From Patescibacteria group bacterium (GTDB lineage: Bacteria > Patescibacteriota > Patescibacteriia > Patescibacteriales > WJLG01), in NCBI GenBank assembly GCA_041652555.1, contig JBAZHE010000004.1:657-64656 (forward strand): a DNA stretch of 64,000 bases. The letters are read 5' to 3'. Positions 13,774 through 33,305 of the stretch are shown in pieces. Below the pieces are notes generated by a model. It was not told the origin of the DNA. It was given only the letters and a program-made list of their open reading frames with translations, and searched no databases. Made by a program: the position numbers and the translations under genes. The stretch's first letter is position 1, and every line of letters begins with the position of its first letter.

Positions 13774-14751
13774 ATGAATATTAACGTTCAAAATACACAA
13801 AAAAATATAAGCACTAAAGAAAAAATTACGAAAATTTTGTGTTTATTTGTATTTTTATTCGTGTTATTTAGTGTTTTGCCCGGCGTTGCGCAAGGAGCAG
13901 AACTCTATATAAATTCTACTAGCACAACAAATGGAGAATACGGCCTAAACCAGTCCTGGGAAACCAAAGTATTTTTAAACAGCGACGGCGAGGGCATCAA
14001 CGCGGTGGAGGGGAAATTTTTATTCCCATCCGATCTTTTGGAAGCCAAAACAATATCCGACGGAAACTCTGTTGTTAATTTATGGGTGGAAAAACCGCAA
14101 TTAGAATCCGATGGCCAAATCGTCTTTTCCGGCATTACCCCGGGAGGATACAATGGCGAGCAAGGATTAATTTTCTCGGTTATTTTTTCGTCCAAAAAAG
14201 AAGGCGATGGCGTGCTGGGATTAAGCCAGGCAAGGGCGCTTTTAAATGACGGCCAAGGCACGGTCGCGCCACTTTTAATTTCCAACTGGCAATTTTTGAT
14301 TTCCCCCGCATTTCCTTCTCCCACCTTGCCAATAGTTGAAGACATTTATCCGCCAGAGGAGTTTCTGCCTCAAATCACCCACTCCACAACGCTTTTCAAT
14401 AACCAATGGTTTTTAATCTTCGCCACTCAGGACAAAAATTCAGGGATAGACCGCTATGAAGTTAAAGAAAGTAAAAACGCAAAATCCGGTCGCTGGCTGG
14501 TGGCAGAAAGCCCTTATCTCCTTCAAGATCAGCAATTAAAAAGCTATATTTACGTTAAAGCGATTGATCAGACCGGCAATGAACGGATTGAAATACTCCA
14601 GCCACGAACACCAATATCAGATTACCAAAACATTATTAATATTATCACCCGCAACACCATCGCTTTAATAGTGCTAATTATCGTGCTAGCCCTGATTATT
14701 ATCGGTTATTTTACTAGAAATCTATGGAGAAAAAAACAAAGAAAACGCTAA
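13774..14751 (+). CDS. Cohesin-like domain protein with C-terminal TM anchor
   Basis: Signal peptide. ELYINSTS...INAVEGKFLFPSDLLEAKTISDGNSVVNLWVEKPQ...GQIVFSGITPGGYNG pattern, which I recall from CPR proteins annotated as cohesin-domain. C-terminal TM IALIVLIIVLALIIIGYF plus a basic tail. Confidence 0.5.
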   Translation: MNINVQNTQKNISTKEKITKILCLFVFLFVLFSVLPGVAQGAELYINSTSTTNGEYGLNQSWETKVFLNSDGEGINAVEGKFLFPSDLLEAKTISDGNSVVNLWVEKPQLESDGQIVFSGITPGGYNGEQGLIFSVIFSSKKEGDGVLGLSQARALLNDGQGTVAPLLISNWQFLISPAFPSPTLPIVEDIYPPEEFLPQITHSTTLFNNQWFLIFATQDKNSGIDRYEVKESKNAKSGRWLVAESPYLLQDQQLKSYIYVKAIDQTGNERIEILQPRTPISDYQNIINIITRNTIALIVLIIVLALIIIGYFTRNLWRKKQRKR

Positions 14752-16397: not shown

Positions 16398-16424
16398 TTC
16401 GTCGCCAAATTCATAGAATAAAAA

Positions 16425-16453
16425 ATGAAACACTAAAAAGGTGTTTCATTTTT
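16425..16453 (+). terminator. Rho-independent terminator immediately before the island boundary
   Basis: ATGAAACAC-taaaaag-GTGTTTCAT followed by TTTTT. Confidence 0.75.
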
Positions 16454-16457
16454 ACTG

Positions 16458-16478
16458 GCGGAGAGTGAGGGATTTGAA
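16458..16478. repeat. attL: displaced copy of the tRNA-Ser 3' end
   Basis: Exact 21/21 match to 28834-28854. Confidence 0.85.
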
Positions 16479-16597
16479 AATGAAAAACGATTTTTAGAAT
16501 AAGCCTTTAAAATCAAGATTATTCAATGAATATGGGCTGAAAATAACTTTTTCAGTTTACCAACATTTACCATTTTTCATCATCTTTTATCGTTTTT

Positions 16598-16618
16598 TGG
16601 GCACAGGGTGGGCACAAA
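16598..16618. promoter_or_regulatory. 21-bp motif TGGGCACA-GGG-TGGGCACA-AA; candidate integrase arm-type site (left arm)
   Basis: Exact 21/21 match to 28708-28728. Internal 8-mer direct repeat with 11-bp register. Lies about 120 nt inside attL. Confidence 0.4.
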
Positions 16619-16664
16619 CTCACCGGCACAATACAGGGAAAACGATAAAATGATGATATTTCTA

Positions 16665-17009
16665 TTATTTAATCTTTTTGCTTTTTGTAAAAATCGCATT
16701 AAACAAATAATAAAGCAAGCAGGATAAAAAATAATAATAGAGGATGTTTAAAGTAAAGCTTAAAACCGAAATTAAAGAATTAATAGCTAGAAAAAATGAG
16801 CTATCGTAAGATGAATTGATTACAAGCCCTAAAGTTTTATTTATTAAGCTTATTATGAAGTTTATAGGTAAATCAAGGATAAAAATATTTGGAGTATCAC
16901 CTGGATTTTTCATTCTCAAAACAGACAAAGAATTAAAAAACCCCGATATATAAACAAATAGGATTGTGATCCAAAATTTAAAGCTGTTTAATTTAAAAAA
17001 AGGTTTCAT
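16665..17009 (-). CDS. Small polytopic membrane protein, unknown function (last gene of the rSAM operon)
   Basis: ORF-track protein with 3-4 hydrophobic segments (WITILFVYISGFF, FIISLINKTLGLVI, LISVLSFTLNILYYYFLSCLLYYLF). Confidence 0.45.
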   Translation of the reverse strand: MKPFFKLNSFKFWITILFVYISGFFNSLSVLRMKNPGDTPNIFILDLPINFIISLINKTLGLVINSSYDSSFFLAINSLISVLSFTLNILYYYFLSCLLYYLFNAIFTKSKKIK

Positions 17010-17022
17010 ATATTAATATCAA

Positions 17023-17202
17023 TTAAAAAAAAATCTTTCCAATTAAAAATAACGGCCAACCAATCATTACTATAATTACACTACTTATTCTTTCGTAAAG
17101 AGAAATATTTCTAGTTTCTCCGCCAATAAAATAAATAATTAACCCGACCAATAGATAAATAAAAATAACACTAAATACAATAATTATTTTTTTATTTTTC
17201 AT
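17023..17202 (-). CDS. 59-aa two-TM membrane protein (below the ORF-track size cutoff)
   Basis: Manual translation: MKNKKIIIVFSVIFIYLLVGLIIYFIGGETRNISLYERISSVIIVMIGWPLFLIGKIFF*. Confidence 0.35.
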   Translation of the reverse strand: MKNKKIIIVFSVIFIYLLVGLIIYFIGGETRNISLYERISSVIIVMIGWPLFLIGKIFF

Positions 17203-17233
17203 AGACCTTAATTATATCATTACAACTAAAAAC

Positions 17234-17497
17234 TTATCTTTTTGTGTTTATTTTTCTAAAAATAAAAAAGGATACTACAATACCAACGGCAGCACCAAGT
17301 AACGCTCCGAAGTCGCCACAAGATTCATAACCGCGCAAGCCGAACATATGACAGCAAAAACAGCTACAGTCATGACCTGTCACATCACAATCGCTCGCCC
17401 CTATCCCCATCATAGAAAACAAACCGAAGACGGCCAAAAGCAAAGTAAAAAATATCGCCCCGATCAGAAATAATATTTTTTTAATCATCTTATTCAT
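17234..17497 (-). CDS. 87-aa membrane protein with a 7-Cys loop between two TM helices
   Basis: ILFLIGAIFFTLLLAVFGLF...SDCDVTGHDCSCFCCHMFGLRGYESCGDFG...LLGAAVGIVVSFFIF. Its start abuts the stop of the upstream gene (17497/17498). Confidence 0.55.
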   Translation of the reverse strand: MNKMIKKILFLIGAIFFTLLLAVFGLFSMMGIGASDCDVTGHDCSCFCCHMFGLRGYESCGDFGALLGAAVGIVVSFFIFRKINTKR

Positions 17498-18247
17498 TTA
17501 CATTTTTTGCACCTCTTCCACTATTTTTAAAATTAAATCCTTTATATCTTCTTTTCCGTTTAAAACGAAACTTTTATTTATCTTTTTTACAATCTTATCG
17601 TGCTCCGGATAGCTCATAGTTGGTACGCCAAAAACTTTCAACCAGCTTGGAGAATTTTGCACTATAACATTGAATATTTCCGAGACATTCCAGACAAAAA
17701 AATTATATTTTTCTGGGCGATATTTTTTAAAAAGAGAATAAAAATATTCATAGAATATGAAATGAAGCATTTCGTGAGCAATGATAACATTGATATATTT
17801 GCGCGACCGAAATTTGTAAGGAACTTGGAAGGTTTTATCTTCTAAAAATCTCGGGTACATACTCCAGATTGTAAAATAAGCTGTGTACTCGCCTTTTGGC
17901 CAAGAAAAATCTCCAAACAAATCATTGATCAAATTAAAAAAATTCGGCTCAATCTTTTTCCAATTGGTTGCAAATATTTTTAAATTCTTATTCATCAATT
18001 CAGAATTAATAAAATATTGCTTCTTGATAAATTTCACAAGAGCATCATTGTTAGAAATTTTATTATCGGAAAAATATTTTTTTAATTGAGAATAATGCTT
18101 AAATACAGCCCACAACAAATTACGCCCATCGTCAAAAGCGGCATCAGCGGTAAAGGCTTGCAACGTTTTTATGTCTTTTTTGTAATCTATTTTAAATTTA
18201 ACTTTTGGATGCATAAAATTAAATGGAGGTATTATTAATACCTCCAT
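17498..18247 (-). CDS. HExxH-motif protein (putative zinc metallopeptidase), paralogous in motif context to 18604-19134
   Basis: YINVIIAHEMLHFIFYEYF. No other recognisable domain. Confidence 0.45.
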   Translation of the reverse strand: MEVLIIPPFNFMHPKVKFKIDYKKDIKTLQAFTADAAFDDGRNLLWAVFKHYSQLKKYFSDNKISNNDALVKFIKKQYFINSELMNKNLKIFATNWKKIEPNFFNLINDLFGDFSWPKGEYTAYFTIWSMYPRFLEDKTFQVPYKFRSRKYINVIIAHEMLHFIFYEYFYSLFKKYRPEKYNFFVWNVSEIFNVIVQNSPSWLKVFGVPTMSYPEHDKIVKKINKSFVLNGKEDIKDLILKIVEEVQKM

Positions 18248-18408
18248 TCTATCATTCTAACCTTAATTATTCAATTGAGACTAGTATTTTTATTTATGCT
18301 CCCCGAATTATGGATGATATTCAAACCAGCATACTATTTTAATCAGCACAAATAAAAAAGGGCTGTTATTAAACAACCCACAAATTTAAAATATGCTCGC
18401 TATTCAAC

Positions 18409-18579
18409 TTAAATTTTTCTAAATTTCTTCTTTTTCAACAAAGAAAAAAAATGTTTTACGACATTAAAAAAACGAGTCACAGAAAAAGAATCTTCATTTA
18501 CTCTGCTCCTATTTTTTTGTTGTGATTTTTTTAAAGAAGCCTCTCCTAAATATTTTTCCCTCATCCCAGGATACAGCAT
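18409..18579 (-). CDS. 56-aa basic protein with strong SD (not in ORF track)
   Basis: GAAGGAGGAtaatATG. MLYPGMREKYLGEASLKKSQQKNRSRVNEDSFSVTRFFNVVKHFFSLLKKKKFRKI*. Followed on the minus strand by hairpin GGGTTGTT/AACAGCCC plus a T-run (about 18360-18385). Confidence 0.4.
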   Translation of the reverse strand: MLYPGMREKYLGEASLKKSQQKNRSRVNEDSFSVTRFFNVVKHFFSLLKKKKFRKI

Positions 18580-18603
18580 ATTATCCTCCTTCTTTGTAAT
18601 AAA

Positions 18604-19134
18604 CTATTGAACCAAATAATCTTTAAATATTTTTTTTAGTCCTGATTCAACAAAAATACAATCCACCTCTTGTTCGTTCTCCTTGCTGTAATCACTATTT
18701 TTTTGTAAATCTTCAATCAATAGATGTATCATTTCGTGAATTATTGTCTCAGCTATATATTCTGCCTTATGGCGAAGATTAACAACTATCGTATCCGGAA
18801 AATAATAATAGCCATCGCAACCGTAATAATTTAAAAAAACTTTAAACTGTTTGTTTATTAAAAATTTATCATTGTATCTCTCTAAAAGAGATTTTATTTC
18901 ATCTTCATTTATTTTTAAAAAATCATCAACCTCCTTGAGTATCTGATCTGGATTGTTTTCTATTTTATCTTTTTCCAATTGCGAAACAATCACCTCTTCC
19001 GTTATATTTTTATCCTCAAAAGGAAAATATATTCTAATGTTATTTTTTTTAAAAAAATCCAGAGATTCTACGACTTCAGTCATCTCTTTAATTATGATTT
19101 TTTCATCATATTTAATATCAAAATATTTACTCAT
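18604..19134 (-). CDS. HExxH-motif protein (putative zinc metallopeptidase)
   Basis: AETIIHEMIHLLIEDL. The track start at 19176 lies inside a hairpin (GAGGGG...CCCCTC); ATG at 19134 (MSKYFDIKYDEK) is more plausible. Confidence 0.45.
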   Translation of the reverse strand: MSKYFDIKYDEKIIIKEMTEVVESLDFFKKNNIRIYFPFEDKNITEEVIVSQLEKDKIENNPDQILKEVDDFLKINEDEIKSLLERYNDKFLINKQFKVFLNYYGCDGYYYFPDTIVVNLRHKAEYIAETIIHEMIHLLIEDLQKNSDYSKENEQEVDCIFVESGLKKIFKDYLVQ

Positions 19135-19201
19135 AATAAATTTTAATGAGGGGAAAGCAACTAGCGAACCCCTCATTTATTAGTAATCATAAAACTGTCC
19201 T
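19131..19201. repeat. ~70-nt intergenic element, copy X (copy Y at 45943-46012)
   Basis: 29-nt core TCATTTATTAGTAATCATAAAACTGTCCT matches 45984-46012 at 26/29, with weaker similarity across the adjacent ~40 nt including a hairpin. Confidence 0.6.
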
Positions 19202-20500
19202 GGCAAAACTCTCGACCTCCTCTATAGAGCAATTCAACGCCAGACCTATATCTTCTAAGGAATTTTTACCATTCATTAGTTTTATGGCATCTACGCCAAA
19301 CTGATCTAAAATTAACATACCCTTACCATCAAACAACCCAACATAACAATTTTCCGACTCTTTTCTTATTTTGTATTGTTTGTTTAACACTGGATAGTTA
19401 TCAATCTTTTTGTTTTTAAAACCGTTTGGGGTTGTCGTTACTTGAAATATCCATTTTTTAAAATAATTTTTCAAAGTAATAAAAATTGATTCTAAAAAAT
19501 TTTCTTCTACTGGCAACTTGATAAATTCATCGGCGATAAAATTATTCTTCATCGTCCTAGAAGCAATACAACCGCCACCACAAAAAGTTGGACATAGCCT
19601 GCAAGATAACGGTAAGTGTTTAAAAGTTCGAAAATCAGCTAATTTTTTCTCCCAAATAACTGATAAATCATCCTCAAAAATATTACCTATACCAACGCTC
19701 AAGCTTGCACAATTTTTAACCTCCCCTAAATAATTTATTTGACCAAAAGCTATTCCCTGAGCGCAATACAGTAGATACTTCCAATATTTAACCGGCACTT
19801 TGCATCTCGGAAATGAGTCTATTAAATTAACGGGAAATCCATAATTAATTCTTATTCTATGTATCATCTCGAGAATTTTCAAATAATCACCCATTGTTAA
19901 CTCACCATAGCTTCCATCTCCTTTATAGAGTCGATTCATGCAAACATTTTTTATTCCGTATTCTTTGTTAACTGAAACGATAAACTCTTCAAAAGTTTCA
20001 AGATTGATTTTGTTAGGAGTAAACAATATCGCAACTTCGACTCCAATGTTTTGCAATTTTTGAATTGAATTAACTGCTAAATCAAAACTTCCATCAACCC
20101 CTGTAACCTTATCATGCACATCTTTTAAGCCGTGGAGCGAAACACCACACTCTATCATGCCAATACTTTTAATAAAATCGATGTCTTCGCTTGAAAATAA
20201 TGTACCATTTGAAACGAAAGAGATAAAAAACCCTAATCTTTTCGCCTCACTCATTATTTCCTTCCACTCCTTAATAAGAGAAAACTCTCCGCCAAAAAAT
20301 CTAACCTCTAAAACACCGCTCTTTTTAAGAAGGTGTAATATTTTAATAAGATTATCAAATCTTTTTTGACTAGGAATGCTTACATATCTTTTTTGATAAG
20401 GTTCAGTGGGGCAAAAACAAAAAAAACATCTTAAATTACAATCTGCTGTCAACTCTAAGTTAACGGAAATTGGTGCAGACAGTTTTGTTCCAGTATTCAC
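19187..20500 (-). CDS. Radical SAM / SPASM-domain peptide-modifying enzyme with C-terminal PqqD-like (RRE-like) extension
   Basis: CNLRCFFC (CX3CX2C). SPASM-like CAQGIAFGQINYLGEVKNC ... CRLCPTFCGGGC. C-terminal GMLILDQFGVDAIKLMNGKNSLEDIGLALNCSIEEVESFARTVL resembles PqqD. The track start (TTG at 20542) lies inside a terminator hairpin; GTG at 20500 follows AAGGAG with a 6-nt spacer. Confidence 0.8.
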   Translation of the reverse strand: MNTGTKLSAPISVNLELTADCNLRCFFCFCPTEPYQKRYVSIPSQKRFDNLIKILHLLKKSGVLEVRFFGGEFSLIKEWKEIMSEAKRLGFFISFVSNGTLFSSEDIDFIKSIGMIECGVSLHGLKDVHDKVTGVDGSFDLAVNSIQKLQNIGVEVAILFTPNKINLETFEEFIVSVNKEYGIKNVCMNRLYKGDGSYGELTMGDYLKILEMIHRIRINYGFPVNLIDSFPRCKVPVKYWKYLLYCAQGIAFGQINYLGEVKNCASLSVGIGNIFEDDLSVIWEKKLADFRTFKHLPLSCRLCPTFCGGGCIASRTMKNNFIADEFIKLPVEENFLESIFITLKNYFKKWIFQVTTTPNGFKNKKIDNYPVLNKQYKIRKESENCYVGLFDGKGMLILDQFGVDAIKLMNGKNSLEDIGLALNCSIEEVESFARTVL

Positions 20501-20529
20501 GTCTTGCTCCTTTTTTTTAAAAAAACAGC

Positions 20530-20565
20530 CAACCCTTCCCAATTTTTTATCACAAGAAAGGGTTG
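20530..20565 (-). terminator. Terminator/attenuator-like hairpin between the precursor peptide gene and the rSAM gene
   Basis: Minus-strand CAACCCTTTC-(16-nt loop)-GGAAGGGTTG followed by gcTGTTTTTTT, then the rSAM SD. Confidence 0.55.
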
Positions 20566-20575
20566 ACTTCCTTTA

Positions 20576-20701
20576 TTAATACGCGCATCTACACTGTCCA
20601 GCGCATTGACTTGATTGCATTTTCAAATCAATACTTTTACTTGTGGACAACCCAAGCTTTTTAACGTGTCTTTTAATAAAAAGACGCTTTAATGCTTTCA
20701 C
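20576..20701 (-). CDS. 41-aa Cys-rich putative RiPP precursor peptide (unannotated, GTG start)
   Basis: Manual reverse complement: AAAGGAGGTGataaGTG aaa gca ... tat TAA TAA gives (M)KALKRLFIKRHVKKLGLSTSKSIDLKMQSSQCAGQCRCAY. Sits directly upstream of and co-oriented with the rSAM/SPASM gene. Confidence 0.6.
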   Translation of the reverse strand: MKALKRLFIKRHVKKLGLSTSKSIDLKMQSSQCAGQCRCAY

Positions 20702-20750
20702 TTATCACCTCCTTTCTGTTTTTTGTAAAGATCAAATTTCACCTGCAAGA

Positions 20751-20779
20751 ATAATAACCTTAAAATAATAAAATGTCAA
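20751..20779 (-). promoter_or_regulatory. Candidate sigma-70-type promoter of the peptide/rSAM operon
   Basis: Minus strand TTGACA-17 nt-TATTAT. A second overlapping TTGACA lies 9 nt upstream. Confidence 0.4.
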
Positions 20780-20836
20780 CATTGTCAATATTTCAGTTAC
20801 CAATATAGTAAAAATAACGCCAATTTTAGCGTTATC

Positions 20837-20859
20837 TTTACTAGCGGAGGGCGTGGAAC
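20837..20859. repeat. Degenerate att-like copy inside the island
   Basis: TTTACTAGCGGAGGGCGTGGAAC versus attL context TTTACTGGCGGAGAGTGAGGGAT (16451-16473). The shared TTTACT prefix is not present at the tRNA copy. A degenerate TGGGTACAAAT follows at 20901-20911. Confidence 0.4.
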
Positions 20860-20979
20860 AAAGTTAGAACTATTATATCTAATTATTTTCTAGATTCTAA
20901 TGGGTACAAATCATAAGCGACTTCTTCACATGGATGAACTTCCTTCATGGCAGTAATACTACAGTAAAGAAGAAAAAAA

Positions 20980-21885
20980 TTATTTTATATTTTTTTCAAT
21001 TTCAGAAAATGCTCTATCTTTCTCTAAATCAACCTTTTCCATTCCATCTGGACTTGCCTCATAATCCCCATCTTCTTCAAGTTTAAAATCAATTATATAA
21101 TGTTGTCCTCTAAAATCGACTTGATATTTATAGACAAACCCTTCATGGTTTTTTGGATCAATAGGCAAATTAGACATATAAGTTGGCCTCTTTCTCAGTT
21201 CCTTGGACAATTCTTCCCAAGAAGAAACTACTGGATATTTATTATTGTCATTAAAATATAATTCTAATGCTGTTTGCACTTGTTTAACATCAGCTATTCT
21301 TCTAGCATCTCTAGATTTTCTTCTAGCATTATTTAAAGCAACAACAGAGAGAGTAGATAAAATAACTAAAAATACAAAAGATGAAATTATTATAACAACC
21401 ACTGAAATATTTATTGATCTTAAGAATGGAAAGATTCTATATACTAAGGCTATAAAATTAATAAAAACTATCCAACTGATCAAAGAATAAAATGCTCTAA
21501 AAGGGCTCTTATTTACTTTATATTCATTTTTTATAGATCCATGAAGAAAAAATTCACTTACTTGATTTCTAGTATGCTCCAATCCTTCATATTCTATAAG
21601 TAGCTTTTTAAAAGTAAAGTGAACGACCCAACCAAAACAAAATAATGGGAGTAACAAAAACAAAGTAATAAGACTGTCTACGTCTTCATATATTTTATAA
21701 TTAACAAGGGCTATTATAACTGTAGAAAGAGAAAAAACGGTTGTAAAATAAAACTTAACTAACCCAAGCTGTATATCATCAATCTTGTGCATTTTATCAT
21801 CGCTTTGTTTTAATTCTTCTAAAAAATAAGTTTTTACATCATCCATATTTTTATTTTTTCCAATCTTCAATTGTAATTTTATCAC
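20980..21885 (-). CDS. Polytopic membrane protein with C-terminal type IV pilin/pseudopilin-like globular domain
   Basis: At least 4 hydrophobic segments, then NNARRKSRDARRIADVKQVQTALELYFNDNNKYP (typical post-helix region of CPR pilins). No G/FTLIE prepilin cleavage motif. Confidence 0.5.
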   Translation of the reverse strand: MIKLQLKIGKNKNMDDVKTYFLEELKQSDDKMHKIDDIQLGLVKFYFTTVFSLSTVIIALVNYKIYEDVDSLITLFLLLPLFCFGWVVHFTFKKLLIEYEGLEHTRNQVSEFFLHGSIKNEYKVNKSPFRAFYSLISWIVFINFIALVYRIFPFLRSINISVVVIIISSFVFLVILSTLSVVALNNARRKSRDARRIADVKQVQTALELYFNDNNKYPVVSSWEELSKELRKRPTYMSNLPIDPKNHEGFVYKYQVDFRGQHYIIDFKLEEDGDYEASPDGMEKVDLEKDRAFSEIEKNIK

Positions 21886-21907
21886 CCCTCTTTTCTATTT
21901 TCTCTTT

Positions 21908-22115
21908 TCAAAATTTTTTATTCGTTGTCGGCAATTTGTAGTGTTTTTTGCAACCGTGCCAAAAGCACAAATCGATAAAAATAACCGTTTGATATTTTTT
22001 TCAAAACCAAATCAGGTTTTCCGAAATAATGAGTGGAATTTTTTCTATAACGAAAGCTCTCTTTCCAAAGGTCTCTTCTAAAACTAATTTCAATCTTACC
22101 GTCTTTACTTCTCAC
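21908..22115 (-). pseudogene. vsr: Decayed very-short-patch repair endonuclease (vsr) remnant
   Basis: Frame 1: RSKDGKIEISFRRDLWKESFRYRKNSTHYFGKPDLVLKK. After a frameshift, frame 2: KKYQTVIFIDLCFWHGCKKHYKLPTTNKKF then TGA where Vsr has Trp. The tail overlaps the next gene's start. Confidence 0.6.
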
Positions 22116-22164
22116 TTTACTTATTATTTCGCTTCTCTTTTTTTTAAAACTGTATCATCCATAA

Positions 22165-22920
22165 TTATTTATCAAATAACTCAACAGGATTGATTTTAAA
22201 TTGTAACATTTTAGCAGAATCTCTACCTCCGTCACCACCCTTTCTTTGCATTCCTATTTTTCCAATTTTCAGACTACCCTGGTCCGTTATTCTTATATCG
22301 CCTTGTCCAAAAACATTCATTGCCTCGTTAATAGATTTTAAAACCCAATCGTTATCACCATTCGCTTTTAAAATAACTAATACCCAATCAGCAGAAAATT
22401 CTCCCCTGCCTTTCAGTAAATCGGAAATAACAAGAATTCTGTTTTTATCAAAAAATTTAATAATCTTTTTTTGATCTTTCTTTTTCATTTCTGTTAAAAG
22501 CATTCTTCGAGGATCTTTTAAGTTTTTTTCTTTTGGCTCTATCTCACCAGTAAAAAGTTTTAAAATTTTAACAATATCTTTTGGAATTTTCCAAAGCTCG
22601 GTATATTTATCAACCCACCTTTTGTCAATTTGATTAAATCCCTGCGGGTTGCTAACCAATTTAACTTGCAAATTTTGCAAATCTTCTTGAGATTTTAATT
22701 TAATAACAATCCTAATCCTAACTTGAACGTCGGCCTTATATTGCCCTCTAACTTTTTCCGCTTTGACATATTCAATATTATCAAAATCATACCCCATTTC
22801 AGAAAGCCAAGCTTGAGCAATTTCACTCGCTCTCCAGTTATTAAATGTTTTTATTACATCTTTTTCGTTTTTGAACCCTCCCTTTGCGGTTTTAGAACCG
22901 AGTTTCACCAAATTTACCAT
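22165..22920 (-). CDS. Type II restriction endonuclease (specificity unknown; C-terminus reminiscent of the MspI/HpaII group)
   Basis: Immediately downstream of the C5-MTase. Candidate catalytic D...Q-V-K (KADVQV...LQVKLVSN). C-terminal KMLQFK resembles my memory of the R.MspI C-terminus. Weak. Confidence 0.5.
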   Translation of the reverse strand: MVNLVKLGSKTAKGGFKNEKDVIKTFNNWRASEIAQAWLSEMGYDFDNIEYVKAEKVRGQYKADVQVRIRIVIKLKSQEDLQNLQVKLVSNPQGFNQIDKRWVDKYTELWKIPKDIVKILKLFTGEIEPKEKNLKDPRRMLLTEMKKKDQKKIIKFFDKNRILVISDLLKGRGEFSADWVLVILKANGDNDWVLKSINEAMNVFGQGDIRITDQGSLKIGKIGMQRKGGDGGRDSAKMLQFKINPVELFDK

Positions 22921-22928
22921 ACAAATAT

Positions 22929-23912
22929 TTAAATTATGCTTATTAAATTTTGAGCCAATCTTTCTATCACATTAACAGTCATAGCATTTCCAGCTTGAGA
23001 TAAAAGATTTGTATTATTAATTTTTCCTATTGTTTTTTCCGCTATGTCTTTTGGGAAACCTTGCAACAACAAAGATTCAAATCCGGACAATCTCCTTAAT
23101 TTTCCATTTTTAACATAAAGAATTCCATGTCTGCCAGTTCTCAACGTTGGAACCTTATTTTTATAAATTCTTAAATCCGATTGTCTAGTGTCTAAAACAA
23201 TATAGTCTTTTTTAAGCAAATCTTCTAAATTATGTTTCCCTTTATTATACTTATTATTTAAGTAATTTAAAAAAGTTTTATACCCCGAGCTGTTTTCGTC
23301 AAATTCAAGCTCTTTGCCGCCATCAATTAAATATTCGGATAATTTAGGACTATCAGGAAGATCAATAAATCCTAAGTCATTATTTTTTACTAAGTCTTTT
23401 CTTATTCCAACGAAATAAATTCTTTCTCTCATTTGAGGAACTCCATAATGTTCGCTATTTAAAACCTCATTAAAAATAACTTTATATCCAGCCTTATCTA
23501 GTTCGTTTAAAATTACCCGCAAAGTTTTCCCCTCATCATGGTTAACTAATCCTTTAACATTTTCCAAAATAAAATATTTCAAATTCTTTTCAAGCATTAT
23601 TTTAATTAGGCCAAAAATTATTTGCCCTCTATCATCAGCCATTCCTTTTCTTTGCCCAACTATAGAAAATGATTGGCAAGGAAAACCGGCAATCATTAAA
23701 TCGAAGTCTGGCATTTGTTTTGGATCGGCTTTCATTAAATCGCCAAAGTTTTGCTCTTTATGTCCAAAAAATTCTCTGTATGTCTTCTCGGAACTTTTAT
23801 TTATTTCGGAAAAGCCGACACAACGCATTCCATTTTTTTCTAGACCGAGTCTGCCAGCCCCAATGCCGGCGCAGAAATCCATGAATTTTATTTTCTGTTT
23901 TGTTTTTTGCAT
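22929..23912 (-). CDS. DNA (cytosine-5)-methyltransferase
   Basis: Motif I FCAGIGAG, motif IV GFPCQSFS, ENVKGL, QMRERIYFVG, GNAMTVNV. The track start at 23969 is a GTG extension overlapping the lexA promoter; ATG at 23912 (MQKTKQKIKFMDF) is preferred. Confidence 0.9.
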   Translation of the reverse strand: MQKTKQKIKFMDFCAGIGAGRLGLEKNGMRCVGFSEINKSSEKTYREFFGHKEQNFGDLMKADPKQMPDFDLMIAGFPCQSFSIVGQRKGMADDRGQIIFGLIKIMLEKNLKYFILENVKGLVNHDEGKTLRVILNELDKAGYKVIFNEVLNSEHYGVPQMRERIYFVGIRKDLVKNNDLGFIDLPDSPKLSEYLIDGGKELEFDENSSGYKTFLNYLNNKYNKGKHNLEDLLKKDYIVLDTRQSDLRIYKNKVPTLRTGRHGILYVKNGKLRRLSGFESLLLQGFPKDIAEKTIGKINNTNLLSQAGNAMTVNVIERLAQNLISII

Positions 23913-23931
23913 ATTTATGTTTGTTATTAAT

Positions 23932-23960
23932 ATTTTACTCTTTTTACAAATACTTGTCCA
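23932..23960 (-). promoter_or_regulatory. Candidate promoter of the methyltransferase operon
   Basis: Minus strand TGGACA-17 nt-TAAAAT. Its -35 lies 3 bp from the divergent lexA -35. Confidence 0.35.
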
Positions 23961-23963
23961 CGG

Positions 23964-23992
23964 TTGCACTTCGGTCTATCTTCGGGTATAAT
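23964..23992 (+). promoter_or_regulatory. Candidate promoter of lexA
   Basis: TTGCAC-17 nt-TATAAT read directly. Confidence 0.5.
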
Positions 23993-24005
23993 GTTAATAT
24001 AACAT
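23991..24005. promoter_or_regulatory. Imperfect palindrome ATGTTA-ata-TAACAT between the lexA -10 and its ATG; candidate operator
   Basis: 6-bp arms, 3-bp spacer; overlaps the end of the -10 and abuts the start codon. Confidence 0.3.
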
Positions 24006-24605
24006 ATGAATCCATTAACGAAAAGACAAAAAGAAATTTTAGAATATATCTCTTTATATATAGAGAAAAAACAATATTCCCCCACTTACGACGAAATCAA
24101 AAATAATTTCGGATTATCAGCCTTGTCAACTGTTCACGAACATATAACAGAATTGGTTAATAAGGGATATATCAAAAGAGGTGACAAAAATCCTCGTGGA
24201 ATTTCACTTACTCCAAAGAAAAAACAATACATGGAAATACCTCTTTCCGGAGTTATTCGAGCAGGAAGTCCAATTGAAGCCTTGGAAACAACTGACGAAT
24301 TTGTAAATGTTGTTCGCGAACCATCTTTAAAAGGATCTCTTTACGCCTTGAAAGTTAAGAGTAATTCTATGATTGGTGAGGGAATATTTAATGACGACAT
24401 TATAATTGCCAAAAAACAATCCACCGCCGAAAACGGCGATACAGTAGTCGCCGTTATAGATGACAACGAAGCAACTTTAAAAAAATTCTTCAAAGAGAAA
24501 GGAATGATAAAACTACAACCAGCCAACCCGACATATCGTCCGATATACAGAAAAAATGTTGAAATAAGAGGTGTGGTTGTAAAAATAATAAGAAATTTAA
24601 AATAA
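24006..24605 (+). CDS. lexA: LexA-type repressor (wHTH plus S24 autopeptidase)
   Basis: LTKRQKEILEYI...YSPTYDEI...LSALSTVHEHITELVNKGYIKR. Ala-Gly site (VIRAGSPIEA). Ser nucleophile (KSNSMIGEGI) and Lys (ATLKKF). Confidence 0.85.
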   Translation: MNPLTKRQKEILEYISLYIEKKQYSPTYDEIKNNFGLSALSTVHEHITELVNKGYIKRGDKNPRGISLTPKKKQYMEIPLSGVIRAGSPIEALETTDEFVNVVREPSLKGSLYALKVKSNSMIGEGIFNDDIIIAKKQSTAENGDTVVAVIDDNEATLKKFFKEKGMIKLQPANPTYRPIYRKNVEIRGVVVKIIRNLK

Positions 24606-24633
24606 CCATTATTAACCCTTTTTATTAAGTTAC

Positions 24634-25530
24634 ATGAAAAAAACTTCAAGTATTGCAATAGCAAAAAAAGGAGCTCTAAAAAAGATAACAGATAACATAG
24701 AAAAAATCTATGACGATTTTATAGTCAATGAAAAAATATATCAGCTTAGAATTGTTTGTCATTCTAAACCCGGTTTATACGAAAAGAACGAAGAAGCTGT
24801 CTCAAAAATAAAAGACATTGAAGAGCTTGTAAATTTTTTAGATGACCGGAGAATTGAACAATTTGATGAAGACGATAAAAATGAAGCGAAAGACGAAAAC
24901 ATAGCAAAAGTTAGAGCTTTATTGGCGTTGGAAGAAAAAGAATGGGCTGAAAAAAATAAAAGACCTTGGCCACCAGAAGAAGAGTCCAAATTTGAGAGAG
25001 AAGACTATATAAAAAATGAAGCCAAAAGAATTATGAAAGGCTCGACGGCTATTTTTCTTTTTAACCGAATCAATATTAATCCGGATTTATGGCGAAGTGT
25101 AATTGCGGCGATGTTTTTGCGTGTTCCGATAGAAAAAGTTTTGGAATGTAAAGAATCAATTTTAACTAAATATTTTTTACCGACAATTGATAATGATTGT
25201 TTAATAGTGCGTATCAATGAAATGACAAAGCCGGCAGATTTCGAACTAATTATAGATCTTTTAGGAACTAAGCAAAATGATTACGCAAAAAAATACGGAT
25301 ACATAAATAGTACGAGCACTACGGGATACCCAAGCCGCAAAGCGGACAAAATAATAACCGAATGCTATTTCAAAAGAATGGACATTAATCAAATTCACGA
25401 CGAATTAAAAAATCAAGGAATTACTAAAAAATATTCTGAGGCTAAAATTAAAGAAAGAATCAAAGAGTACTTGACACAGACTCGGCAAACGGAAAAATTA
25501 TCAGAAAAAATAAAAATTACCTGTGCATAG
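24634..25530 (+). CDS. Hypothetical protein (298 aa), probably co-transcribed with lexA
   Basis: Long ORF 28 nt after lexA; acidic/Lys-rich; no motif recognised. Confidence 0.5.
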   Translation: MKKTSSIAIAKKGALKKITDNIEKIYDDFIVNEKIYQLRIVCHSKPGLYEKNEEAVSKIKDIEELVNFLDDRRIEQFDEDDKNEAKDENIAKVRALLALEEKEWAEKNKRPWPPEEESKFEREDYIKNEAKRIMKGSTAIFLFNRININPDLWRSVIAAMFLRVPIEKVLECKESILTKYFLPTIDNDCLIVRINEMTKPADFELIIDLLGTKQNDYAKKYGYINSTSTTGYPSRKADKIITECYFKRMDINQIHDELKNQGITKKYSEAKIKERIKEYLTQTRQTEKLSEKIKITCA

Positions 25531-25598
25531 AGTTTTTTTCTCTACATAAAACTCATATCCTAATTTAACTCTAGTTAGCTAAAATAAATAACTGCATC

Positions 25599-25632
25599 AA
25601 AGATTTTAATTTAACAATTAAAATCTTTTTTT
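25599..25632. repeat. 34-nt perfect hairpin repeat, copy 1 (AAAGATTTTAATT-taac-AATTAAAATCTTTTTTT)
   Basis: Near-identical to 25766-25799 (one loop difference). Could act as a terminator after ORF 24634-25530 or as an operator/origin element. Confidence 0.7.
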
Positions 25633-25765
25633 ATTACAAAAAATCAGCGAAAAAAAGAAAATCACAAAAAACAGAAAAAACTGAGAGATGTGGATAAATT
25701 TTTGCTCACGAAAATATTTTCTCAACACCAAGACCATTATCACTTTTAAAAAAAGATGTTATCCG

Positions 25766-25799
25766 AAAGATTTTAATTTGACAATTAAAATCTTTTTTT
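25766..25799. repeat. 34-nt perfect hairpin repeat, copy 2
   Basis: AAAGATTTTAATT-tgac-AATTAAAATCTTTTTTT, 167 nt after copy 1. A perfect DnaA-box 9-mer (TGTGGATAA, 25689-25697) lies between the copies. Confidence 0.7.
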
Positions 25800-25891
25800 A
25801 ATCAAATGTAAGCTAAATTTCTAACAACCCAAAATGCTATGATAATAATTAAAGAAACACTTTTAAAAAATAATTTTAATTTAATACAACG

Positions 25892-26401
25892 ATGGAAAAT
25901 GAAACTAAAAACTCAAACGACAAAGAAAGATTCCTTAAATTAAGATACGGATTATATGATTGGTTTATGTCAAACCGCTTTAGAGAACCAAAGTCTAAGG
26001 TTTTTTTTGCGATTGTCAGGCTTACGGACGGCTGGAATAAATCGGAGGCAATAATAAACGAAAGGCAACTGGCAAAAATAACAAAAATTAATTCAAGAAA
26101 CGTAGGAAGATACTTAAAATATATGCTTAACAAAAGAATCTTATTTAGACGTGATAGTGGAAAGAAAAAATATGGCAAAACAATGTATTTTTACAAGATA
26201 AACAGTCACATACGCCATCCAAAAGATGGCAGTGAAGAAAACCACCATTCAGAAGATGGCAATACAGCCATACCGCTTACGGCAAAAACCGCCATAAGCG
26301 AGATGGCTATTAAAGATATAAAAGAAATTAAAAATAAAGCTGTGCAAGAATCTATGGATAAACTTAAAAACTACAAAAAGGGCTACCTAGACGAACAGTA
26401 G
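25892..26401 (+). CDS. Phage replication protein O-like / DnaD-like wHTH replication initiator
   Basis: KVFFAIVRLTDGWNKSEAIINERQLAKITKINSRNVGRYLKYMLNKRIL matches my memory of the phage_rep_O N-terminal domain pattern (R.T.G..K....IS..Q.A..TG.....V.R....L....I). Confidence 0.55.
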   Translation: MENETKNSNDKERFLKLRYGLYDWFMSNRFREPKSKVFFAIVRLTDGWNKSEAIINERQLAKITKINSRNVGRYLKYMLNKRILFRRDSGKKKYGKTMYFYKINSHIRHPKDGSEENHHSEDGNTAIPLTAKTAISEMAIKDIKEIKNKAVQESMDKLKNYKKGYLDEQ

Positions 26402-26439
26402 AAAAAAGAAAACGAAAGAAAAAAGAAAAAATTGCGGAA

Positions 26440-27460
26440 GTAAAGGAACCTCCCCCTTTCTTTGTAAAAATTTCAAAAGAGACTTCCCCTTTTAAAAGAC
26501 TTTTGATTTTAAGATAGCTTGTAGATTTTCCGCCCGAAAAAATTAGCCCTCCCCTTTCATTACAACCTAATGGCCGGAGCAAGGACTTTGCAAGAGCCTC
26601 GCGGTAATTTCCGGCCGTAACTTAGATTGAACTTCGGTAAATGGTTTTTCCACAAAAAGATAGGCAGGGGTGAGAAAGAGAAAAAGAAAAAGATAAGCTC
26701 CTTTAAAAAACAGAATGAATAAGCGCCCCAAGCTCCCATATTAAATTATTAAAAAAAGATTGGGGCAATTATTCTTTCTGTTTTTCAGAAAATAATTTTT
26801 TCTTTTTCTCTTTCTCACCTCTGCCGAATTATATTCTATCCGACTACAAAAAAGTTTTCACAACCGAACGAAATGACTGATAAACATTTAGAAAGCCAAA
26901 CGCGATGAAAGAAGTTTTTTAAAAGCAAAAACATCCTCCCAAAAAAATATTATTTTTTGCTTTTAAAAAACTTCTTTGGTCGCGACAATGTTGCAAGATT
27001 GACTTTTAGAACGCAACCGCCGGAGCAATGACACAGGCAGAACACAAAACTTTTTCCCGGCGGAACTTAGATGAATTTCGCGAGAGCAACCGAAGCCAAC
27101 CACGACAGAATATTTTTCACTTGTCTCCGTTGCCTTACTTCGCATAACGCATATTCTCGCGAAGTAAGTTGAGAACGTTCTTTCTCCCCTATCTTAATTT
27201 AATTCGCGCGCGATTACCTTTGCTTGACCGAGATGTTTAAACGCGTCTACTTCCGCGAAATATTCGTTATGCGAAGTAAGGGTGCGAGAACGAAAGCTTT
27301 ACCTGTGTCTCCGACTATTTTCCACGCGAGCCAAGACGAATATAATCTAGTGACGAACTTTCGCGAGCGAAGCCTCAAAAACACCAAGACATCCATCTTA
27401 AAAAATGGTACAATACAAGAGTGCTTAAGGTGATAAAATCACCCCCTGTATTGTACCTTA
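26440..27460. other. About 1 kb ORF-free, relatively GC-richer, hairpin- and repeat-dense segment (candidate origin/iteron region or structured ncRNA)
   Basis: TCCCCTTT-type repeats (26450-26558). Long hairpin 26664-26824. Perfect 24-bp-stem hairpin 26901-26985. Two ~60-nt related units (26574-26637 and 27020-27080). 16-nt perfect inverted repeat 27133-27148 / 27266-27281. Hairpin 27407-27457. Confidence 0.6.
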
Positions 27461-27469
27461 ACAATTAAA

Positions 27470-27685
27470 ATGATTGGTTCCCACGCCAACAAAAAATTGA
27501 TAAACACCGCTGAATTAGCGGAATACCTAAGGTTATCAAAAACCTCTGTTTATCGTTTGATAGAGAAAAGATCCATTCGCTTTTACAAAGCCGGCGGACA
27601 CATTCTCTTTGATATTTATGATGTCGATGAATATCTAAAAAATAGATGCGTGGAACCGATAGAAAGAAAATATGGCAACATATAA
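27470..27685 (+). CDS. xis: Excisionase-family HTH DNA-binding protein
   Basis: LINTAELAEYLRLSKTSVYRLIEKRSIRFYKAGGHILFDIYDVDEYL (HTH_17 / excisionase pattern). Overlaps the integrase start by 14 nt. Confidence 0.75.
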   Translation: MIGSHANKKLINTAELAEYLRLSKTSVYRLIEKRSIRFYKAGGHILFDIYDVDEYLKNRCVEPIERKYGNI

Positions 27686-28771
27686 AAGAGGAAAGGTTTG
27701 GTATGTGCGTTTTCGTTACGGACGAGAAAGATGCGTTAAAAAATCTCCGGACAATTCTCCGTCTGGGGCCAAGGCTTTTGAAGCCAATTTAAGAAACCGA
27801 CTTGCTCGAGGAGAAAACATCAACTGCGAAGAAGAAAAAAAGACGGATATTTCTTTTGCCGATTTTTCCAAAAAGTTTTTTGATATTTATGTTAAGAATA
27901 ACAATAAGCTATCAGAGCAAATGCAAAAGAATTATGTTTTCAAAGCAAGGCTAATTCCTTTCTTTGGCAAAACTAAAATGTCTGAAATATCCAGTTTGCA
28001 AATAGAAGAATTTAAGGCTCACGTGCTTGGCACGGGAATTAAAAGAAAGACAGCTAATAATATTTTAACCATGTTAGCGAAATGTCTTAGAACTGCCGAA
28101 GAATGGGAAGTCATTGAAAAAATTCCCCGAATAAAAAAATTCAAAGTTGAGCCATGCGGTTTTGATTTCTTAACTGAAAAAGATATTGAAGATTTAATTG
28201 GGGCGGCTAAGGGAATTTGGAAAGACATGATTAAATTCGCGATTGATACTGGGCTAAGGCTCGGGGAAATAAGCGCGCTTGATTGGACTTGTGTTGATTT
28301 AAACAAGAAAACAATCACGGTAAGAAGATCTTACACAAAAGGTCAAATGTCATCGCCCAAGAGTAATAAGGAAAGACACATTCCAATGACCAGTCGAGTT
28401 TTTGAACTTCTGCAAAATCGTCCGGGAAGAATAGGATTAATTTTTTCTTTAGAGAATGGCAAACCGATAGAACAAAATCGATGCCGAAATCATATGCTGG
28501 CAATCTGTCAAAGAGCCAATCTGAGGCCTTTAAAATGGCACACGCTGCGTCATACCTTTGCAACTAGACTAATTAGCAATGGTGCCTCCATAAAAGCCAT
28601 ACAAGAGCTTTTAGGCCATTCGGAAAAGCCGTTACCATGAGATACGCTCATCTTGAGCCCAACGTTTTAAAAGACACTGTGGAAATTTTAGACAGTTTAG
28701 AGATTAGTGGGCACAGGGTGGGCACAAATGCCAAAATTTGCCTCCCGATAGAGGCAATAAAGCAATTTTAA
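27672..28771 (+). pseudogene. int: Tyrosine integrase, frameshifted just upstream of the catalytic Tyr
   Basis: Frame 1 ends ...HTLRHTFATRLISNGASIKAIQELLGHSEKPLP* (28640). A shifted frame continues MRYAHLEPNVLKDTV... to 28771. Restoring one A in GAAAAG (28623-28628) gives GHSEKAVTMRYAHL, the canonical box II. Confidence 0.8.
28708..28728. promoter_or_regulatory. 21-bp TGGGCACA-GGG-TGGGCACA-AA motif, right copy (candidate arm-type site)
   Basis: Exact match to 16598-16618. About 105 nt inside attR, within the frameshifted integrase tail. Confidence 0.4.
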
Positions 28772-28833
28772 AAATCAATTTTTACCCTTTAAATACAACA
28801 AAAAAAGGCCATTAAGCCTTTTTAAAATGAGGT

Positions 28834-28854
28834 GCGGAGAGTGAGGGATTTGAA
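28834..28854. repeat. attR core within the tRNA-Ser 3' end
   Basis: Exact 21/21 match to 16458-16478. Confidence 0.85.
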
Positions 28855-32955: not shown

Positions 32956-32959
32956 AAAA

Positions 32960-33258
32960 TTAATCTTGTTCTAGAACTTTTTTCACTTTAATTTGATTCC
33001 CTAAAAGGCCGTTTGGAGATTGGGCAAACGCAGCTTCGCGTTCGTCTTTTGACCACTCCTCTACTTCATCGGCGCGCCAAACATCGAACAGGCCAGTAAC
33101 TTGCGCAGTTGGCTGAACATTAGTAGTATCAACTTCTTTTAATTGATCAATAAAATTTAAAATATTAGAAAGCTGAGGCGTTAGCACGTCGATTTCTTCC
33201 TCGGAAATTCCAGACGGGCAAGCGCCGCGACTTTTTTAACTTCATCTTTAGATAACAT
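32960..33258 (-). pseudogene. gatC: gatC with a 1-nt frameshift (or homopolymer sequencing error)
   Basis: ATG at 33258: MLSKDEVKKVAALARLEFPRKKSTC*. The other frame continues (V)LTPQLSNILNFIDQLKEVDTTNV.... Adding 1 nt near GGAATTTCC (about 33203-33211) gives ...LARLE(I/F)SEEEIDVLTPQLSNIL. The span is 299 nt, one short of 100 codons. Confidence 0.75.
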
Positions 33259-33305
33259 AAAATTAAATATTCTAGATTCCCGTTTTCACGGAAATAACAC
33301 GCTGT

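Follow-up and report, generated by a model that had tools for sequence, protein, structure and literature searches.

Genomic islands and prophages that use a tyrosine integrase to enter tRNA genes, such as P4, HP1, mycobacteriophage L5, and the Islander/TIGER islands, carry an attP that includes the 3' end of the target tRNA gene. Here, we analyzed a 64,000-nucleotide stretch of a Patescibacteria (candidate phyla radiation, CPR) chromosome (contig JBAZHE010000004.1; hereafter "the window"), in which positions 16458-28854 very probably constitute an integrated mobile element located in the 3' end of a tRNA-Ser(GGA) gene. Like the known islands, this element has a direct repeat that corresponds to the 3' part of the tRNA gene, an integrase gene adjoining the intact tRNA, and a border that restores the tRNA end together with a terminator, and it likewise shows a compositional shift and variable occupancy among relatives. 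Site-specific integration had already been proposed in a previous analysis that used only the letters of the window (the sequence-only reading). Our data support this proposal and add three independent lines of evidence, namely arm-type sites, homologues at the same site, and a pair of remnant and empty sites.

Attachment sites and arm-type sites

The 21-mer GCGGAGAGTGAGGGATTTGAA occurs exactly at 16458-16478 and at 28834-28854, and the window contains only these two copies, as the sequence-only reading had stated. No further copy with up to three mismatches was found in the window (0 expected by chance), and a looser scan of the window with up to six mismatches gave no convincing third core copy. 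The single tRNA gene of the window is an intact tRNA-Ser(GGA) at 28834/5-28919, the integration target (ARAGORN; Rfam tRNA, 57.4 bits). Its intactness had been recognized correctly, but the strand has to be specified: the gene lies on the minus strand, and the 21-mer on the plus strand is therefore the reverse complement of the tRNA 3' end. The right copy (attR core, 28834-28854) now forms this 3' end and covers the T-loop, the 3' T-stem, the 3' acceptor strand, the discriminator G, and one C. The left copy (attL core, 16458-16478) is an isolated 21-bp copy of the tRNA-Ser 3' end outside any tRNA gene, and the identity ends after GAA, where AATG is found on the left and CCCT in the tRNA. The locus thus has a direct repeat at each end, and one of the two copies makes up the 3' part of an intact tRNA gene.

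When IMG/VR was scanned with the 21-mer, 13 exact matches were obtained, 12 of them in called tRNA-Ser genes that mostly belong to tRNA arrays of phages; the remaining one is truncated by the end of its contig. Many tRNA-Ser genes share this generic 3' end, the word is not specific for a lineage, and its use as a lineage marker was therefore rejected. As the word is generic, the unusual feature is its isolated second copy and not the word itself. Occurrence at many unrelated loci, which the sequence-only reading had regarded as a potential objection, is in this sense only trivially the case.

The two copies enclose 12,355 bp with a GC content of 31.8%, as compared to 38.2% in the remainder of the window. 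No other 12.4-kb stretch of the window has a GC content as low as that of the island, and the tetranucleotide distance from the rest peaks at 18-27 kb. This shift in composition relative to the flanking chromosome falls exactly between the repeats, and the two composition scans thus substantiate the AT-richness that had been noticed by inspection.

Just inside the tRNA-proximal end, family matches identified the genes of an excisionase and a tyrosine integrase, as had been predicted. The xis gene (27470-27685, plus strand; excisionase-type HTH_17, PF12728 with 2e-13, PHROG_66 excisionase) overlaps the start of int (27672-28640, plus strand; Phage_integrase with 3e-29). A recombinase gene therefore adjoins the tRNA inside one end of the element, although the open reading frame (ORF) as it stands, with 322 aa, ends before the catalytic Tyr because of a frameshift that the sequence-only reading had not seen. 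In the direction of the tRNA, hairpin terminators follow both cores at 16453-16421 and 28823-28802 (terminator scan). The latter (28802-28823, minus strand) is element-borne and now lies behind the tRNA; the same sequence is found behind the tRNA in the relative L187, where the native trailer has been displaced.

A tandem-heptamer arm site, GGGCACAGGGTGGGCACA (18-20 bp), is present identically near both ends of the element. The P' arm-type site GGGCACAGGGTGGGCACAAA at 16599-16618 (plus strand; repeat search) consists of two heptamers with an 11-bp period, 120 bp from the core, with an extra GGCACAA beside it at 16625-16631. It is part of the non-coding P' arm (16479-16664), which has no ORF with a family match. 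The P arm-type site GGGCACAGGGTGGGCACAAA at 28709-28728 (plus strand; repeat search) lies 105 bp from the core within the 3' coding end of the integrase gene. Within the window, GGGCACANNNNGGGCACA was found only at 16599 and 28709, and the arm sites are the only GC-containing tandem heptamers with a period of 11 in the 64 kb.

The distance between the two sites is 266 bp in the attP reconstructed from the integrated state of the window. L022, a relative that is also in the integrated state, has the sites GGGCATTCCATGGGCAT and GGCATCAGTTGGGCAT (GGGCAT type) 265 bp apart, and L106, an uninterrupted attP contig, has GGGCAATATATGGGCAAT on both arms (GGGCAAT type) with a distance of 276 bp. Under a strict exact-hexamer criterion, paired arm sites were detected in 11 of 68 viral-contig relatives and in none of 295 control windows. 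Both attP arms thus appear to carry arm-type sites distinct from the core, with heptamers that, to judge from L022, L106, and the viral relatives, co-vary between the arms. As far as can be read from the sequence, this layout is the split arm-site arrangement of an attP, which is the signature of a heterobivalent integrase with its predicted arm sites. As an independent line, the pairing places the true far border of the element at 16458-16478. In practical terms, a heptamer pair with one site in the integrase 3' end and the other about 265 bp across the core provides a rule for locating attP or the far border in this integrase family.

We infer a recombination event at tRNA-Ser(GGA) that would have proceeded as follows. 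A circular form of about 12.4 kb would have carried a three-part attP, in which a 21-bp copy of the tRNA-Ser 3' end was flanked on each side by a tandem-heptamer arm site at a distance of about 105-120 bp. A heterobivalent tyrosine integrase of the lambda/Tn916 type, composed of N-terminal arm-binding, core-binding, and catalytic domains, would have carried out the recombination between this attP and the 3' end of the tRNA-Ser(GGA) gene that lies downstream of gatA. Integration would have split attP, so that the integrase-proximal arm and its own terminator now complete the tRNA (attR) and the other arm, together with the second core copy, is now found at a distance of 12.4 kb (attL).

Occupied, empty, and remnant sites in relatives

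The 14 closest GTDB species representatives (GatA 62-77%) as well as L041 (GatA 57%) were scanned. In 13 of the 14 representatives, tRNA-Ser(GGA) directly follows gatA; none was called in L032. An integrase was found at only two of the scanned gatA-tRNA-Ser loci. Neither an integrase nor a repeat was seen at ten loci for which the sequence extends 2.4 kb or more beyond the tRNA (nine further representatives and L041); in L031, the sequence breaks off about 0.1 kb behind the tRNA, so that this locus gives no information. Integrases with 52-58% identity adjoin tRNA-Ser(GGA) downstream of gatA, in the same gatC-ligA-pilin neighborhood but with different cargo, in GCA_964395625.1 (L019/L023), in GCA_964547855.1 (L022/L028), and in a Logan contig (P0004). 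In L028, the tRNA end is present as an exact direct repeat of 25 nt, 9.1 kb apart.

The closest relative found, L187 (GCA_964499465.1; GatA 82%), carries a 2.4-kb insert with a 24-nt repeat at its borders. The first 130 nt of this insert on the tRNA side are 84% identical to the P arm of the window, including the arm site and the last integrase codons (...SGHRLGTNAEIRLPAEAIKQF, followed by the stop), and its distal arm aligns with the P' arm of the window (67.6%). L188, which originates from another run and has an identical GatA, matches L187 with 100% identity as far as the tRNA end and then continues with the sequence found behind the distal repeat of L187. Judged by this alignment, L188 is the precise empty site that pairs with the occupied L187. 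L189 (GatA 81%) has the same native trailer as L188, followed by a gene of the LCAT family. As a like gene lies beyond the L022 island, L189 corresponds, by gene order, to the empty counterpart of that island. An empty/occupied polymorphism is thus seen in the family (L187 versus L188, L022 versus L189), whereas every assembly of this species is occupied. The empty site that the sequence-only reading had suggested looking for was therefore found in relatives and not for this species. Syntenic genomes that carry the same gene content without repeats were not encountered. In L187, the core together with the native trailer occurs a third time about 4.2 kb further on (14034-14191, 18274-18475), beside an rve-family transposase gene, which suggests a further insertion layer at the same tRNA.

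Excision to a circular form was not observed for this element, but a relative exists as attP. The P0008 element (integrase identity of 50%) is integrated in tRNA-Ser(GCT) in L105 (9262-9349) and is present as an attP contig in L106 (7153-7446). The presence in L106 of genes for a Prim-Pol helicase and a small terminase subunit points to a phage or satellite relative of the family. A scan of viral contigs with the single integrase sequence gave nothing, and a scan with an integrase alignment gave only relatives of at most 42% identity without an adjacent tRNA-Ser.

Several observations weigh against reading 16458-28854 as an integrated element. Its junctions would be ...GGTGTTTCATTTTTACTG-GCGGAGAGTGAGGGATTTGAA-CCCTCGATGCC... 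for attB and ...TTTTAAAATGAGGT-GCGGAGAGTGAGGGATTTGAA-AATGAAAAACG... for attP; a degenerate junction pattern, applied to JGI metagenome contigs, detected neither a repaired attB nor a circular attP and yielded one further attL only, so that the junctions anticipated by the sequence-only reading did not turn up there. Exact-protein look-ups with a left-flank gene, GatA, and the integrase gave only near-identical occupied contigs. The nearest relatives, L187 and L189, share no genes with the left flank of the window. In L025 (12188-16327), homologues of the surface-protein genes of the left flank (455, 325, and 557 aa) are found directly behind tRNA-Ser(GGA), but inverted relative to gatA; L025 was rejected as an empty-site counterpart, as these homologues are inverted and only partly matched. 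Because of the missing shared genes in L187 and L189 and the inversion in L025, there is no clean empty-site synteny for this insertion. The sequence outside attL differs from the native trailer of L188/L189 and resembles an element-borne spacer of the L019 type, and the left border may therefore abut older mobile DNA and not the original chromosome. With respect to the enzyme, Pfam Arm-DNA-bind matches to the N-terminus of the integrase are sub-threshold (E 0.05-0.12).

The left border was analyzed accordingly. A hairpin with a T-run (16421-16453) and a 4-nt spacer lie outside the left repeat (16421-16457, minus strand; terminator scan). The repeat thus does stand right behind a terminator, as had been noted before, but the sequence there is possibly not the trailer that the tRNA originally had. 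In the tRNA orientation, the left copy continues as ...GC-CA-GTAAAAATGAAAC-hairpin and therefore has an encoded CCA, which is absent from the present tRNA. In L019 and L104, the integrase-proximal spacer contains an exact match of 30 nt to left flank and core, and an A-run/hairpin/TTTCAT layout is common to the left flank and to the integrase-proximal spacer of L019, L022, and L104. The window does not contain AGAGACAATTTAGTATCGTGCA, the native trailer of L188/L189. These similarities, as well as the lack of synteny of the left-flank genes with L187/L189, would be in agreement with a tandem array, in which an L019/L104-type element had integrated first and the present element had then entered the reconstituted tRNA, leaving a stub of the earlier integrase-proximal arm to the left of attL; part of the left flank may then also be old mobile DNA. 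The insert of L187 points in the same direction, as it is a chimera of a window-type P arm and a P' arm with GGGCAAC/GGTCAAC heptamers of the L104/L019 type, which means that elements of two types have met at the tRNA-Ser site. However, there is neither an integrase remnant nor a third core copy to the left of 16458, the GC content of the left flank is host-like or higher (0.40-0.46), and L025 has homologues of the left-flank genes beside tRNA-Ser without an integrase. Moreover, the stub would comprise only about 40-60 nt, and the element arms could equally descend from the native trailer of some host of the clade. On balance, we regard such a two-step history as a serious possibility, albeit not the favored one. 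If the left flank is native, the trailer of an unoccupied allele would read CAGTAAAAATGAAAC, followed by the 557-aa gene, and if it is a tandem remnant, the trailer would be like AGAGACAATTTAG.

With somewhat more reservation, we would like to suggest that the gatA-proximal tRNA-Ser(GGA) might be a hot spot for which two or more lineages of small integrative elements compete. These lineages would be told apart by their heptamers (GGGCACA versus GGGCAAC/GGTCAAC), stack in tandem, and recombine into chimeric remnants, such as L187 and possibly the left border of the window. If this is true, the arm site in the integrase 3' coding end would represent a family-wide, co-varying specificity code that can be read from sequence, and the restriction-modification (R-M) system, LexA, and the peptide-modification cluster described below would be horizontally acquired traits in a minimal-genome organism.

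Cargo of the island and neighboring variation

The R-M, lexA, rep, and radical-SAM genes recognized in the sequence-only reading were all confirmed by family searches. A type II restriction endonuclease of the R.HinP1I family (22165-22920, minus strand; PF11463 with 7e-90 over the full profile, PADLOC REase_II) adjoins a C5 cytosine DNA methyltransferase of the cognate type (22929-23969, minus strand; PF00145 with 6e-70, PADLOC MTase_II), and the two genes are thus predicted to form a HinP1I-like type II R-M system. Next to this pair lies a Vsr mismatch-endonuclease fragment of 65 aa (21918-22115, minus strand; PF03852 with 2e-10, profile positions 17-56 only). It is an N-terminal fragment, and the gene of a 301-aa membrane protein with a pseudopilin-like C-terminal part (20980-21885, minus strand; weak T2SSG/GspG matches) starts where the remainder of Vsr would be expected.

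A repressor of the LexA family is encoded at 24006-24605 (plus strand; TIGR00498 with 185 bits versus a cut-off of 111), with a predicted DNA-binding domain, an S24 peptidase domain, an Ala-Gly cleavage site, and Ser/Lys dyad motifs. The following 298-aa ORF without an assigned family (24634-25530, plus strand; ORF call) has 202 aa in other assemblies: the window has a G at position 24670 where the JGI contigs have a T, and the T turns codon 13 (GGA) into TGA, resulting in the 202-aa product of JGI. The replication initiator has a phage O-like N-terminal domain (25892-26401, plus strand; PF04492 with 6e-11, TIGR01610 with 45.6 bits versus a cut-off of 45.5, PHROG 'replication initiation O-like'). 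Upstream of this rep gene, the 24-nt palindrome GATTTTAATTTRACAATTAAAATC is present in two copies (25602-25625, 25769-25792; 2 matches, 0 expected), each followed by a T-run, and a weaker copy is found just before xis (27450-27471). These palindromes could be operators, terminators, or origin elements. Between rep and xis, there is a non-coding region of 1.07 kb with a GC content of 38% (26402-27469; repeat and GC scans) and long inverted repeats at 26663-26825, 26901-26984, and 27133-27281, which is possibly a replication origin or a regulatory (RNA) region; an Rfam search of this region gave no family, just chance-level microRNA matches. By analogy to other elements, LexA together with the palindromes upstream of rep could link induction to DNA damage, and the RepO-like protein together with the structured 1.07-kb region could replicate the excised form.

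The radical-SAM/SPASM cluster (17234-20701, minus strand) comprises a candidate precursor peptide, the maturase, two HExxH proteins, and a Cys-rich membrane ORF (17234-17497). The maturase-type protein (19187-20542, minus strand; Pfam Radical_SAM with 6e-21 and SPASM) remains below all NCBIfam equivalog cut-offs, and its identification as viperin by PADLOC was rejected, as the matches span only the generic radical-SAM core. Directly upstream of its gene, a Cys-rich ORF of 41 aa (...QCAGQCRCAY; 20576-20701, minus strand; ORF listing) is a candidate for the precursor peptide, as judged from its position and composition. A 190-aa HExxH protein (18604-19176, minus strand; HEMIH motif, sub-threshold SprT-like match) is a putative metallopeptidase. 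The region 16665-18579 (minus strand) encodes membrane proteins of 114, 59, and 87 aa, the last of which is Cys-rich, a second HExxH protein of 249 aa (17498-18247), and a 56-aa ORF, all without family matches. Taken together, the analysis indicates that the R-M system, the LexA repressor, and the radical-SAM peptide-like cluster of this organism were acquired horizontally.

As the integrase, xis, the LexA-like repressor, and the O-like initiator could also be left over from a temperate phage or a phage satellite, we considered a decayed prophage or satellite remnant. The integrase family is common on viral contigs of 25-60 kb, the related P0008 element has phage-type genes in L106, and the truncated Vsr gene and the frameshifted integrase can be taken as signs of decay. 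However, capsid, tail, terminase, portal, packaging, and lysis families did not match any ORF of the island (Pfam, PHROGs, NCBIfam), and the element, at 12.4 kb, has kept both att arms intact, as would be expected if it were small but complete. We therefore consider a remnant of this kind unlikely. Relaxase, type IV secretion, coupling-protein, and other conjugation genes gave no match in the island either (Pfam, NCBIfam), and the island thus lacks the hallmarks of phage satellites (terS, ppi, cpm) and of integrative conjugative or mobilizable elements (relaxase). The element is best filed as a small integrative plasmid-like island with defense and peptide-modification cargo that is now probably fixed.

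Some variation was also noted outside the island. The gatC gene is split in the window (32956-33305, at about 33205), which lacks one G that is found in the assemblies of this strain at JGI (L015) and ENA (L016); the GatC N-terminus and the remainder of the protein are in different frames, which is either an assembly error or a real variant. Between gatC and gatA, a gene for an 830-aa fusion of a methyltransferase and a HAD hydrolase (30463-32955, minus strand) has a GC content of 0.27-0.30. The fusion gene is present in L022 and L188, it is absent in L189, and L019 has a UDP-glucose dehydrogenase-like gene instead. The gatC-gatA interval thus gives the impression of being a second variable slot, located within the gat operon. 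Finally, the gene of a 457-aa protein (37921-39294) contains, in the window, 34 bp (39049-39082) that the JGI contig L015 lacks.

Integrase frameshift and comparison with known systems

The integrase ORF ends at 28640 with ...LLGHSEKPLP and a stop, and the -1 frame reads on as AVTMRYAHLEPNVLKDTVEILDSLEISGHRVGTNAKICLPIEAIKQF up to its own stop. This continuation, AVTMRYAHL...SGHRVGTNAKICLPIEAIKQF and stop (28628-28771, plus strand; translation), contains the catalytic Tyr codon at 28643-28645. In a DNA alignment with three related integrase genes, a single-base gap is located in a GAAAAG run (A4 at 28624-28627), and this 1-nt deletion brings the conserved RYAHL motif with the catalytic tyrosine out of frame. 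As the A4 allele is common to four assemblies (window, JGI, ENA, and Logan; contigs 99.98-100% identical), it is not a one-off assembly error. Among the matches listed, other homologues of 345-400 aa span the RYAHL region in one frame, and one match is a 290-aa partial sequence. With the frame corrected, R196, K230, H290, R293, H316, and Y325 align with 12 homologues, which completes the catalytic R-K-H-R-H/W-Y set, whereas the encoded ORF stops at residue 322. An AlphaFold (AF2) model of the integrase, with a predicted local distance difference test (pLDDT) value of 88, has an N-terminal three-strand sheet and a helix (strands 2-6, 9-16, and 19-24; helix 30-45; pLDDT 83-89), and this fold corresponds to a predicted N-terminal arm-binding domain. 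Foldseek aligned full-length lambda Int over 342 columns and the core of Tn1549 Int with a TM value of 0.68.

On this evidence, a recent inactivating 1-nt deletion in the integrase gene is the best reading. The element would then probably be immobilized, as the deletion removes the catalytic tyrosine from the integrase ORF. Continued mobility of the element is quite improbable. It would come about either through -1 ribosomal slippage of the tRNA-Lys on GAA-AAG (from A-AAG to AAA-G), which would yield ...GHSEK|AVTMRYAHL..., or through a related integrase that is encoded elsewhere in the genome and uses the intact att and arm sites in trans. A-AAG is known as a shift-prone motif in E. coli. A -1 shift at exactly GAA-AAG would restore a full-length protein that aligns with all relatives, and the conserved identity of both core copies and of both arm sites, together with an intact xis, would suit mobility by either route. 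Nevertheless, the single-frame homologues described above argue that the shift is not conserved, the alignment with the three relatives indicates a plain 1-nt gap, no significant RNA structure was found downstream of the frameshift site (z = -1.6), and the JGI contigs contained no attP or attB junction. Programmed frameshifting was therefore rejected as the principal explanation, as it lacks both conservation and a stimulatory structure.

A chance repeat or a leftover of a local tRNA duplication, with the AT-rich genes as ordinary variable chromosome, might be invoked because the 21-mer is a widely shared tRNA-Ser 3' end, but this explanation is effectively refuted by the chance expectation of 0 matches, by the second, independent 20-bp repeat at a matching distance on both arms, and by relatives with the same architecture and with empty sites.

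In a literature search, we found no paper that dissects an integrative element of Patescibacteria at this level. The present case is a clean, fully delimited tRNA-targeted element in the genome of an uncultivated Patescibacteria member, with att cores, arm sites, xis-int, and cargo all resolved. At the same time, the kind of element is classical, and the understanding of how such elements work is unchanged.

The element resembles phage-inducible chromosomal islands and satellites in its size class (10-15 kb), the integrase at one end, the repressor, and the initiator with a nearby origin-like non-coding region. Unlike these, it has no detected terS, capsid-remodelling, or primase genes and a different gene order and orientation; TerS and Prim-Pol are found only in the more distant L106. 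It shares with integrative mobilizable elements and defense islands that a small integrative element carries a type II R-M system, but no relaxase or origin of transfer (oriT) was recognized, and there is only one recognized defense system. As in the case of lambda Int and the integrases of Tn916 and Tn1549, a three-domain protein is predicted, repeated arm sites are found on both attP arms, and the gene of a helix-turn-helix excisionase lies upstream of int. In contrast to those systems, each arm appears to have one tandem heptamer pair with an 11-bp period, about 105 and 120 bp from the core, with the P-arm pair placed in the int 3' coding end. What distinguishes the element from the known tRNA-targeting islands is the small-genome host of the Patescibacteria/CPR, the frameshifted integrase, and the combination of R-M, LexA, and radical-SAM peptide-like cargo.

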